A DNA stretch of 64,000 bases from Candidatus Nezhaarchaeota archaeon. Lineage in GTDB: Archaea; Thermoproteota; Methanomethylicia; Nezhaarchaeales; WYZ-LMO8. Numbering within the stretch: the stretch's first letter is position 1; each line of letters starts with the position of its first letter. A model generated the notes under the pieces. That model did no database searches, had not been told where the DNA came from, and was given only the letters and a program-made list of their open reading frames with translations. Shown one piece after another: positions 28,368 through 48,879 of this stretch. The stretch spans positions 830,581 to 894,580 of the forward strand of contig JASFYF010000001.1 of NCBI GenBank assembly GCA_030055465.1, read 5' to 3'. The position numbers were made by a program, and so were the translations under genes.

Positions 28368-28395
28368 TTACGGCCGCCTAATCGAGTTAGGCGGT
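28368..28395 (-). other. predicted 28-nt bulge-helix-bulge (hBHBh') intron in rps5 pre-mRNA
   Basis: Sense strand reads CAG-ACGG-ACA-CCGCCTAA-CTCGA-TTAGGCGG-CCGT-AAG-CTG. Excision joins QKQTD|AGESSRF; see finding. Confidence 0.75.
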
Positions 28396-28593
28396 GTCCG
28401 TCTGCTTCTGCACTATGTTTACGTCTATGACCTCATGTCTTAGGTTCGGAAGCAGCACATCAACTATTTCAGGCTCCTTTATTACGAGGTTGTTGGCAAA
28501 AACCTCATCTATGCTCGTTATCTTGCCTTCCTTCACCAGCCTTCCTACGCTTGTTGCTGGAACCCATGTTTCTAGCGTGGACATGCTCACCAA
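28396..28593 (-). CDS. rps5: 30S ribosomal protein S5 (uS5), exon 1 (66 codons ending ...NIVQKQTD)
   Basis: N-terminal uS5 region ([21 protein letters not shown]...[10 protein letters not shown]). The listed ORF continues 2 codons into the intron to a TAA. Confidence 0.85.
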
Positions 28594-28639
28594 CCCATAC
28601 CTAGCCCATTTTTAATAGTGAACCTACACTATTGAAGCT

Positions 28640-29275
28640 TTATTTTAAGCTTTCCCCTTTAGCGGTTTGGCTTGCGCGTTCCATGCTTATAGAATGCTCT
28701 ATGCGCTTCTTCACATCTTCAAATGCCTCAGGCATTCTTTCAGGATCAAAGTTCTCCTTCACATACGCCGAGAAGAGCTTCTCATATCTATCAGGAGCTT
28801 CCACTTTAAGCTGTTTAGCGTATTCAACCACGTGTAGTCCTTTGATCCTCTCTTCGGATGGAAGAACTTCAGGGTCATGGGGGATCTCTAGCCCAGCATC
28901 AATAGCCCCCTTCAAAGCCGCAAAGACCCTGGCCCCCCTCACAGCCCTGTGCAGCCCTATGTAGGGCACAGCCTCCTTTACTCCTGCTTTAAGGGCCCTC
29001 AGCGAGGCCAAGTAGCCAGTTAAGTAGGCTGCGGGCGTGTTTTTGCACGAGGCAGGCCACTTGAACCTGTCTTTCAGCTCCTTTCCCGTCGCCTGCGCTA
29101 TCACCACGTCGCCCTTGACTTCTGGCTTAACTACCTGAACTATCACCTGCGAGTTTGTCTTCCTAACAACGAGGATTGGTCTCCCCGAAAGTATCATCGC
29201 TTTTCTTACCCTGTAATCCGTTAATCCCTTCCTCCTCCTCTTGAAGGGTATCTTCTTCGAAGATCCACCGGGCAA
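28640..29275 (-). CDS. rpl18: 50S ribosomal protein L18 (uL18)
   Basis: Contains PFKRRRKGLTDYRVRKAMILSGRPILVVRKTNSQV, in the conserved operon position. Confidence 0.95.
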   Translation of the reverse strand: MPGGSSKKIPFKRRRKGLTDYRVRKAMILSGRPILVVRKTNSQVIVQVVKPEVKGDVVIAQATGKELKDRFKWPASCKNTPAAYLTGYLASLRALKAGVKEAVPYIGLHRAVRGARVFAALKGAIDAGLEIPHDPEVLPSEERIKGLHVVEYAKQLKVEAPDRYEKLFSAYVKENFDPERMPEAFEDVKKRIEHSISMERASQTAKGESLK

Positions 29276-29277
29276 AC

Positions 29278-29724
29278 CTAAACCCTCCTGATCAGACCCT
29301 GCTCCTTTATGTAAGACTTCAAATGAGCTCTGCTGCGAAAGACCCCGCCCTTGATCATCACGTAGAGCCTCCTGTAAGTCTTGTTATCTATGGTCTTTCT
29401 ATCTCTTAGGTACCTGATAAGCCTCCTCAAAGCCCTAGTCCTAGCTATCCAGGCATCCCTCTCCAAGTAGCGCTTCGAGCCCTTCCTCGACCCTTCGCCA
29501 GCCCGTAAACCCTTGCGCTTCTTTAAGATGATGATCCTGGCCCTAGCCCTGCTAGTCCCCCTTACGGGCCTAGCCCTTATCACCCCTTCCTCTACGAGCC
29601 TTCGAACATCCTCTTTAGTTATCGCCGCCGCGGCGTCGTCAAGCCTTGAAGGGTCTATGTAAACTCTGCTTTCCCCTACGCCCAGCACCTCTGCAGCCAT
29701 CCTCTTCATGATTCTCATGTTCAT
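29278..29724 (-). CDS. rpl19e: 50S ribosomal protein L19e
   Basis: Contains KRMAAEVLGVGESRVYIDP...GTSRARAR. Confidence 0.95.
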   Translation of the reverse strand: MNMRIMKRMAAEVLGVGESRVYIDPSRLDDAAAAITKEDVRRLVEEGVIRARPVRGTSRARARIIILKKRKGLRAGEGSRKGSKRYLERDAWIARTRALRRLIRYLRDRKTIDNKTYRRLYVMIKGGVFRSRAHLKSYIKEQGLIRRV

Positions 29725-30116
29725 GTCTCAACACCAACGGTATTAAGAACCCTGAGGCCCAGGGTTTTCGCCTTCTCGAGGATCTGGAGGCGCTTTCTTC
29801 TTCCAACAACATGAGCAACCCTCACGCAGTGAAGTGAAGGGTTGAGGCCGTAAAGATCTTCAGGCCTGTAAACTAGGACTTCAATAAGGCCTGAGGGGTG
29901 CAAACCCCTAACCACCCGTGGATTTCTGTAGCCGACCCTAACAAGGGGTGGGTAACCCTTCCTGCAAAGCTTTATCTTATTGTCTATGCTTCGAGGCTTC
30001 CTCCATCTATCCTCATCTACCCTTTTGAGCTTTAGAGTGTTGAGTCTCCTGAAGGTTGGCCTAGCCCTCCCCATCTTCAACCTAAGCCTTAGAAGCCTTT
30101 TCTTGACGCCTTGCAA
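29721..30116 (-). CDS. rpl32e: 50S ribosomal protein L32e
   Basis: Contains RWRKPRSIDNKIKLCRKGYPPLVRVGYRNPRVVRGLHPSG. Confidence 0.95.
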   Translation of the reverse strand: MQGVKKRLLRLRLKMGRARPTFRRLNTLKLKRVDEDRWRKPRSIDNKIKLCRKGYPPLVRVGYRNPRVVRGLHPSGLIEVLVYRPEDLYGLNPSLHCVRVAHVVGRRKRLQILEKAKTLGLRVLNTVGVET

Positions 30117-47110: not shown

Positions 47111-47919
47111 GTCCTCTTTACTCCAGCCTCAGCGTATATTGCCTCCAGCAAGCTGCTTATCACCGGAATTTTGGGGATGGAACTAATTTCAGGTGCGTAC
47201 GCCATAAACGTCAGGTACAGCTTTCGACCATTATCGCTGACGTCGATGTTAAGCCTGCCCCCGCGGCTGCTGACCTCCTCCTCCACCTTTTTGAAGTCTT
47301 CGGAGTCCACAATCGCCAGCGCGGCCCTACTCAATCTCTCGGAGGCCTCACGCGCAGCCTTATTGGATACGAAGGTCGAAACCGACGTGGCATCAAGATA
47401 TATGCCATCGTGCTGCACCTGAAGCGCAAAGTTGTCGATGCTGGAAGTCCCATCTCTACTTTCAAACATGAAGTAGACGCCCTTGTATGCTCCCGGCTCA
47501 TCTTCAACTAGCTTAACGTCGCTGAGTAGGTAGTCTCCCTCGCAATCCAGGGACGCCGATATGTGTTCGTCAATGTGATGCAACAACGATCCAAGGTCAA
47601 GGAGATAGGCCAAAGCTTGGCTTAAGCTACACCTACCGTCCTTTAAGCCCCTCAGGCTGTAGGCTTTCTTGACCTCATCAATCAAATCCCTAAACTCGAA
47701 GATGGCCCTCAACGCGTCTTCAACGATGCCCTCCACCTCAACGTCGTCATCCCCCGCAGCCAGCGAAAGCCACTTATACGCGTCGCTTGGCAGCTTCACG
47801 CTCACTTTGAAATATTCGGCCAATATATGAAACCCCGTAATTGTTAGGGAAATCCCACACTTATTGTTTTCCCAATGTGGATCAGCATTAAAAGTTCCCA
47901 TAACTTCAAGCCCTTGCAC
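47107..47919 (-). CDS. hypothetical acidic protein (270 aa)
   Basis: Long ORF with normal composition and no motif I recognise. Confidence 0.35.
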   Translation of the reverse strand: MQGLEVMGTFNADPHWENNKCGISLTITGFHILAEYFKVSVKLPSDAYKWLSLAAGDDDVEVEGIVEDALRAIFEFRDLIDEVKKAYSLRGLKDGRCSLSQALAYLLDLGSLLHHIDEHISASLDCEGDYLLSDVKLVEDEPGAYKGVYFMFESRDGTSSIDNFALQVQHDGIYLDATSVSTFVSNKAAREASERLSRAALAIVDSEDFKKVEEEVSSRGGRLNIDVSDNGRKLYLTFMAYAPEISSIPKIPVISSLLEAIYAEAGVKRT

Positions 47920-48032
47920 AGCTTCACCAAGCAGGAACCACGCCGCTTCAGGACAAGCACCCTAAACCCCTAAGTTGTGGTGGCATGCACGCCAAAAAAC
48001 CGCGGCGGCGGGGAAGCGCCAAGCCAACGGGT

Positions 48033-48131
48033 TGGTGCGGCCGCCGGGATTTGAACCCGGGTCGCCAGCGCTCTTCGGAGCTTGAACCCCGTGGAAGGCT
48101 GGTGTCCTAATCCAGGCTAGACGACGGCCGC
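48033..48131 (-). tRNA. tRNA-Gly (anticodon UCC) with a 21-nt canonical intron (48071..48091), CCA encoded
   Basis: Anticodon arm CCAGC-CUUCCA|intron|C-GCUGG. BHB: H CUUC/GAAG, bulges CAC and AGC, h' GGGG/CUCC. Confidence 0.9.
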
Positions 48132-48286
48132 TGCTGTTGGTGTTGGGAGCTATATACATATATTTTTTGTTGGGCTCAACCAAATGCCTTCCAATCATCG
48201 TGGGAACTCATATCAACTCTGATCTTTCATGGCCCAAACTCTTCTCCCCGCCGTCCTGCATAAACTTTTGCTAAAGGCTATAACCA

Positions 48287-48848
48287 TCATGGTTTCAAGA
48301 TTCTCAGCACGTTTTCGCGATATGGCGGTCTTATTATGCCCTTCTCGGTTACTATGGCTGTTACGAGCTCGGGCGGAGTGACGTCGAAGGCTGGGTTCAA
48401 AACCTTGACGTCTATGGTTATGGGCTTCCCATTCACCTCGAGAACCTCCTTTGGATCCCTGCTCTCTATAGCCACCTGATCCGAGGTGGACTGCAAGTCG
48501 AATGTTGAAGTTGGCGCCGCCACGTAGAAGGGTATCGAAAACCTGCTGGCAACCACTGCCACAGTCAAGGTCCCTATCTTGTTCACCACGTGTCCATCCC
48601 TCAACACCCTGTCGGCGCCGACTATCACCTTGTTCACGATGCCTCGGCTCATGACGTAGCCCACCATGTTGTCGGTTATTAGCGTAACGTCTATGCCGTC
48701 CCTCTTCAACTCGTAGACCGTCAATTTAGCCCCCTGAAGTCTAGGCCTGGTCTCCGTGGCTATGACCCTCACCCTCCTGCCCTTCGCCACGGCGCTCCTG
48801 ATGATGCCTAGCGCCGTCCCATAACCAACCGTGGCTAGGGCACCCGCA
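48287..48848 (-). CDS. mtnA: MtnA / eIF-2B alpha-beta-delta family isomerase (methylthioribose-1-P isomerase-like), exon 2
   Basis: Begins with the third base of the Asn codon, then [19 protein letters not shown]...VIVGADRV. 562 nt to the stop. Confidence 0.8.
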
Positions 48849-48879
48849 CTCCGCCAGCTGAGCTTAGAGCCCAAGCTGT
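48849..48879 (-). other. predicted 31-nt BHB-type (HBh') intron in mtnA-like pre-mRNA
   Basis: Sense strand reads CUGC-AAA-CAGCU-(14 nt)-AGCUG-GCGG-AGU. Excision gives [10 protein letters not shown]; see finding. Confidence 0.65.

Follow-up and report, generated by a model that had tools for sequence, protein, structure and literature searches.

The 64,000-nucleotide stretch of DNA analysed here (the window), from a Candidatus Nezhaarchaeota archaeon (contig JASFYF010000001.1, positions 830,581 to 894,580), raises the question of how two conserved genes with broken reading frames can be expressed. The genes are rps5, encoding ribosomal protein uS5 (minus strand, 28584..27933), with an insert of 28 nt, and an mtnA-like gene of the IF-2B family (minus strand, 49352..48287), with an insert of 31 nt. 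The initial annotation held that both are repaired by excision of canonical bulge-helix-bulge (BHB) introns of different sequence and length, and this is borne out by the folds, by the gapless products obtained on removing the inserts and by the finding that the two intron sequences are unrelated. The interruptions are very probably archaeal BHB introns that are spliced from protein-coding transcripts, and the evidence from the two window genes is joined by that from a third gene, encoding the elongation factor aEF-2, in a sister lineage.

Without splicing, the uS5 frame that starts at 28584 runs into a TAA stop two codons inside the intron, the remainder of uS5 lies in another frame, and the codons for the conserved residues AGESSRFK follow immediately on the 3′ splice site, where no start codon is present. 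Removal of the 28 nt yields a 207-aa uS5 that aligns end to end with an archaeal structure (PDB 9fhl_F, E = 2e-84), and the spliced junction, QKQTD joined to AGE, is gapless against structures (vqkqtdage); the junction peptide predicted among the spliced products is VQKQTDAGESSR. The insert and its flanks have the strict hBHBh′ geometry, with an outer helix h of 3 bp and an inner helix h′ (CCGCCTAA/TTAGGCGG) of 8 bp in the window and 8-10 bp overall. The motif is the minimum-free-energy (MFE) fold, at -22.4 kcal/mol (z = -3.35), and none of 200 shuffles is as stable. Bulge geometry alone, with a cut after the second base of each bulge, gives exactly the junction that homology demands.

In the mtnA-like gene the central helix H is CTGC/GCGG, with one G-U pair, between a 5′ bulge AAA and a 3′ bulge AGT, and h′ (CAGCT/AGCTG) together with an inner extension forms an inner helix of 5 + 5 bp. 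Excision of the 31 nt produces a 344-aa MtnA-like protein that is gapless against both 1t5o (2e-113) and 1t9k (8e-110), with a junction identical to that of the Thermotoga enzyme.

The third case came to light in the flanks of the uS5 loci of the sister lineage, where aEF-2 is called in two pieces (667 + 76 aa). A BHB intron of 29-32 nt lies between ...EIEQ and LRQMTVK, with H GAGC/GCTC and the bulges AAA (or AGA) and AAT, the pair in locus L132 being AAA and AAT. The inner helix reads GCGAAGAGGG/CCCTCTTCGC in L132 and GCGTGGAGG/CCTCCACGC in L135, the two differing in two compensatory pairs. Canonical cuts, which take out 32 nt in L132 and 29 nt in L135, join ...LDYVEIEQ to LRQMTVKAAN and give a protein of the same length as the EF-2 of the window (949-3183), which is intact, has no intron and reads ...LDYVEIEQMRQMTVKAAN (EIEQMRQMTVK). 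The geometry is relaxed in both mtnA and EF-2, with an h′ of 5-10 bp and a weak outer helix of 2-4 bp.

Table 1. Positions of the interrupted genes, their introns and the intron-bearing tRNA genes (window coordinates unless a locus is named)
Feature	Position	Strand	Details
uS5 exon 1	28396..28584	-	63 codons, ...CAG ACG GAC (Q T D) at end
uS5 BHB intron	28368..28395	-	28 nt, ACCGCCTAACTCGATTAGGCGGCCGTAA
uS5 exon 2	27933..28367	-	144 codons + stop, begins GCT GGC GAA (A G E)
Whole uS5 BHB motif	28364..28404	-	h CAG(28404-28402)/CTG(28366-28364)
uS5 BHB central helix H	ACGG(28401-28398)/CCGT(28373-28370)	-	4 bp
uS5 BHB bulges	ACA(28397-28395) and AAG(28369-28367)	-	3 nt each
mtnA-like exon 1	48880..49352	-	ends ...CAC TGC AA
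mtnA-like BHB intron	48849..48879	-	31 nt, ACAGCTTGGGCTCTAAGCTCAGCTGGCGGAG, relaxed motif
mtnA-like exon 2	48287..48848	-	begins T GCG GGT GCC: Asn codon AAT completed, then A G A
aEF-2 intron	L132 5890-5921, L133 same	-	32 nt in L132
aEF-2 intron	L135 5053-5081	-	29 nt
aEF-2 intron	L140 10113-10144; L141 8119-8150	-	
tRNA with 21-nt canonical BHB intron	48036..48131, intron 48091..48071	-	position 37/38
tRNA-Leu(UAA), class II	49452..49574, intron 49492-49529 (38 nt)	+	position 37/38

The significance of these motifs depends on how often they arise by chance. In 1.3 Mb of archaeal DNA scanned for BHB-like motifs whose inner helix has 5 bp or more, such a motif falls on a position and length fixed in advance with a frequency of 5.2e-5. 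The bare motif matches the window 627 times as against approximately 637 times in dinucleotide shuffles; at this background level the motif alone is uninformative, and the weight comes from its coincidence with boundaries dictated by homology, a coincidence that is found in three separate genes. All three, uS5, mtnA and EF-2, have a 4-bp helix between 3-nt bulges on opposite strands, and in all three, cuts after the second bulge base restore the frame and the conserved residues exactly. The same cutting rule also fits both tRNA introns of the window. The protein-gene introns have a common minimal design, a single base followed by a hairpin, four bases and a final two; they share no sequence and are therefore independent insertions.

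Compared across related genomes, the uS5 and mtnA introns recur in relatives and are absent from outgroups. Of the GTDB species representatives, those whose uS5 loci come closest are metagenome-assembled genomes (MAGs) of Nezhaarchaeota/Nezhaarchaeales, at 80-85% amino-acid identity, and each of the six Nezhaarchaeota species representatives has, at the same uS5 codon, an insert of 28-30 nt that brings in an in-frame stop and folds in the same way. The intron is also present in the JGI contigs L136-L138, which are syntenic with the window, and, at 31 nt, in the more distant sister lineage (L132/L133/L135, uS5 identity 68-70%). No uS5 insert was found in 45 other loci from Desulfurococcales, Pyrobaculum, Methanomethylicus, Bathyarchaeota and Thermoplasmata. 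In an alignment of 11 distinct uS5 sequences from independent assemblies, 98.3% of cells are paired and changes on both sides occur in 7 of 16 pairs, values that are reached by none of 500 shuffles, while slid controls give 0-2. In L029 a Thr codon of the exon has changed silently from ACG to ACA, and this is matched by an intron change from CCGT to CTGT; such a compensatory pair across exon and intron is predicted by selection on an RNA helix and not by selection on a peptide.

The mtnA intron occupies the same site in three relatives, with lengths of 27 nt in L052, 30 nt in L053 and 31 nt in L136, the first two being the closest metagenomic relatives (75% and 73% identity, respectively). In the relatives the intron forms a 9-bp hairpin (CAGCTGGGC/GCCCAGCTG) and the central helix stays paired (CTGT/GCAG, CTGC/GCAG). 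The intron is absent from homologues at 64% identity or less, in which THCNAGALA is uninterrupted. The introns of L052 (10471-10497) and L053 (3691-3720) are both multiples of 3 in length, and the open reading frame (ORF) in these two loci is broken solely by an in-frame TAG or TGA in the hairpin loop; a single mutation in that stop would hide the intron from ORF callers. The introns are lineage-specific, with that of uS5 present throughout the sampled Nezhaarchaeota and the sister lineage, that of mtnA in a subset, and that of aEF-2 in the sister lineage only.

As envisaged here, the last bases of exon 1 in the pre-mRNA would pair with the 3′ terminus of the intron, giving the 4-bp central helix with two 3-nt bulges on its opposite strands, and the intron body would fold into a hairpin of 5-10 bp. 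EndA, the tRNA splicing endonuclease, would cleave after the second base of each bulge and the exons would be joined by an RtcB-type ligase, which would shorten the uS5 message by 28 nt and the mtnA-like message by 31 nt and restore the reading frame. Several observations weigh against this interpretation. Splicing in vivo and the enzymes involved are deduced from sequence, and neither endA nor rtcB turned up in the window or the retrieved loci, a genome-wide search not being possible. The mtnA motif is relaxed, its outer helix being weak or displaced by a single base; when the mtnA sequence of the window is folded for minimum free energy, the textbook 3′ bulge does not appear, and cleavage of this motif would require an enzyme of the broad-specificity (alpha-beta)2 type. 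Among the mtnA variants there are only wobble-compatible single changes and no double compensatory change, and the outer helix of uS5 pairs in a different register in its MFE fold.

The tRNA genes of the window number five by Rfam, which confirms the earlier count of two with BHB introns, and neither intron is more than 1.5 kb away from that of mtnA. That of tRNA-Leu(UAA), which is missed by ARAGORN, has H CTTA/TAAG and the bulges AGA and CGA. ARAGORN calls the tRNA at 48036-48131 Trp(CCA), whereas canonical splicing leaves the loop CUUCCAC and the anticodon UCC (Gly); the Trp(CCA) label is probably an artefact of a misplaced intron. The BHB introns in these tRNAs imply an active endonuclease, and the use of BHB splicing for two neighbouring tRNAs of the same genome also speaks for the reading of the protein-gene inserts as BHB introns.

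The initial annotation went further and suggested systematic mRNA splicing, in which BHB introns may be common in protein genes of this genome; this is only partly supported. A wider reading, with dozens of such introns across the genome, including in-frame, stop-free examples that are invisible to ORF callers, is rather unlikely. In its favour, aEF-2 in the sister lineage is an independent case that brings the genes with such introns in the clade to three, two of the 11 genes in L132 are affected, and the 27- and 30-nt mtnA variants, being multiples of 3, fit the earlier caution about introns that escape ORF callers. However, essentially all of the approximately 75 window genes were scanned against Pfam, and some against PDB, and only uS5 and mtnA are broken. 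Another Nezhaarchaeota genome (L142), examined over 22 kb, and the sister lineage (L140/L141), over 17 kb, yielded no additional split gene, and the density of two introns in 64 kb is biased by ascertainment, the loci having been chosen for containing introns. The three in-frame candidates on the sense strand in the window, 35727..35704 in DUF429, 30886..30848 in uS8 and 4293..4240 in DUF763, are each ruled out by a gapless profile match. Three intron-bearing genes in approximately 145 kb of mostly pre-selected DNA are consistent with as few as a handful or as many as a few dozen in each genome.

A combined test for a BHB motif and ORF fusion, run over the 1.3 Mb, gave 103 matches and recovers every known intron case. 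The other matches, where examined, are operon junctions or antisense ORFs, among them the window match at 22445..22485 (a HAD/PEP carboxylase junction) and one in Pyrobaculum locus L033 (galK/galT); a match in L140 (16184..16115) overlaps a tRNA. For the Nezhaarchaeota-related loci, the test adds only operon junctions and antisense ORFs. A well-formed BHB-like sequence at 54718..54759 (plus strand) lies inside an intact rpoN, where excision would remove conserved residues, and is regarded as a chance match that also counts against widespread in-frame introns. The uL24 protein is longer than its Pfam model, yet is gapless against PDB uL24. Another well-formed BHB-like motif, at 13328-13363 (plus strand), spans the start of nusA.

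Retention of the intron could in principle tune the output of uS5 or MtnA, by analogy with the unconventional cytoplasmic splicing of HAC1/XBP1, in which Ire1 acts together with tRNA ligase or RtcB. The likeness lies in endonuclease cuts in stem-loops, RtcB-type ligation and a change of frame in an mRNA, and carries no claim of membership; the HAC1/XBP1 system differs in being eukaryotic, in its endonuclease (Ire1) and motif, and in being a proven stress-regulated switch. Every uS5 variant has an in-frame stop after the 5′ splice site and expression would necessarily depend on EndA activity, but such stops arise trivially from hairpins rich in palindromic CTAG/TTAA, and the cbf5 intron is likewise without known function (PMC7714728). 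A regulatory switch is accordingly considered improbable.

It is very improbable that the genes really are split or decayed, or that ribosomes decode them by frameshifting or bypassing with no RNA splicing involved. Gene callers do report separate fragments, and cbf5 introns were once mistaken for frameshifting (PMC2738675), but uS5 and EF-2 are essential single-copy genes. A TAA closes the exon 2 frame right before the uS5 3′ splice site, and hence a simple frameshift cannot repair the gene. Bypassing would lack matching take-off and landing codons, and in a split protein the conserved AGE.SRFK after the junction, having no start codon, would stay untranslated. The covariation, moreover, keeps the RNA structure and not the peptide. 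An assembly or sequencing artefact is effectively refuted by the recurrence of the same inserts, varied and compensated, in more than 10 independent assemblies (NCBI, ENA, JGI), even though related records do contain artefacts, namely a run of N with duplicated flanks in a Sulfolobales 'partial' uS5 (L139 2405-2501), which is due to scaffolding and holds no intron, and radA fragments in L136 (19619-20408; 125 + 79 aa and more) caused by single-base losses in homopolymer runs. L137 and the window (17350-18315) both have an intact radA; the broken copy of L136, an assembly error and not an intron, is a useful negative control.

Among known systems, the reading of these inserts as BHB introns of protein genes has its nearest counterpart in cbf5, whose pre-mRNA in Desulfurococcales and Sulfolobales reportedly contains a BHB intron, work that is attributed to Watanabe (2002) and Yoshinari (2006). 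The resemblance includes a short intron in a coding sequence, (relaxed) BHB flanks, lineage-specific presence or absence and routine mis-annotation as a split or frameshifted gene. The cases differ in their hosts, here uS5, an MtnA-like isomerase and, in the sister lineage, aEF-2, in the phylum-level lineage (Nezhaarchaeota), in the uS5 motif being strict hBHBh′ and not relaxed, and in splicing being a prediction from sequence here; none of the three introns lies in cbf5 at its conserved site. In the searchable literature, cbf5 is the only archaeal coding sequence with a BHB intron (PMC2738675, Yokobori 2009), and the only other mRNA substrate is the 5′ untranslated region (UTR) of HVO_1309 in Haloferax volcanii (PMC7714728, Schwarz 2020). 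The latter is likewise a case of the splicing endonuclease acting on an mRNA instead of on tRNA or rRNA, but its intron leaves the reading frame uninterrupted, and the organism belongs to the euryarchaea and has an alpha2 enzyme. The BHB introns of archaeal tRNAs and rRNAs (Marck and Grosjean 2003) share the motif geometry and the predicted cut positions, whereas the host RNA here is a translated message with no tRNA body for recognition. A review from 2023 considers that further targets are probably still to be found (PMC10485636), and searches of the accessible literature returned no report of BHB introns in Nezhaarchaeota or in uS5/ribosomal-protein or EF-2 genes.

Two features of the gene neighbourhood are also of note. 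A gene with a Clp1-type polynucleotide kinase domain (20238-21527, plus strand; PF16575, E = 2e-41) is conserved in the syntenic contigs L136-L138; in eukaryotes, CLP1 is a partner of the tRNA splicing endonuclease. The ribosomal-protein operon (26284-27948 and 34034-35417) runs from RNase P p29 to uL30, with an HdrD-like CCG/4Fe-4S protein upstream of p29 in place of uS3/uL29, and an ArsR-type regulator, Hsp20 and CDC48 after uL30 in place of uL15/secY, an order that is kept in L136-L138.

The earlier suggestion that such genes are mis-annotated as split is upheld by public calls, which truncate or split uS5, the IF-2B family gene and EF-2. Of the public uS5 entries, those nearest (83-87% identity) are all C-terminal fragments, 111-141 aa long, and the best full-length database match is only 68-69% identical; the N-terminal exon appears in gene tables as an unannotated ORF of 50-68 aa. 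The IF-2B family gene is called as 164 + 176 aa, and the 667-aa truncated EF-2 recurs in the protein database (P0251, P0320). Both uS5 and EF-2 are widely used as marker genes for phylogenomics and completeness, and truncation of the calls to 111-141 aa and 667 aa would be expected to bias alignments and estimates of completeness. A covariation-supported model, usable for intron-aware gene callers on archaeal MAGs, is available in the uS5 alignment.

Taken together, these results add three coding genes with comparative support to the known set of BHB intron hosts, two of which, uS5 and aEF-2, are essential components of translation. As uS5, the mtnA-like gene and aEF-2 are interrupted by BHB introns, their expression would be impossible without the tRNA-splicing machinery. 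A more tentative and somewhat doubtful extension is that in Nezhaarchaeota and the sister lineage, minimal BHB introns may have expanded into metabolic genes (mtnA-like) as well as core genes of translation that are highly expressed (uS5, aEF-2), with at least 10 per genome, some of them in-frame and invisible; the cell could then make ribosomes and elongation factor only by way of the tRNA-splicing endonuclease and ligase. These genes would offer a concrete system for how a spliced message arises where transcription and translation are coupled.

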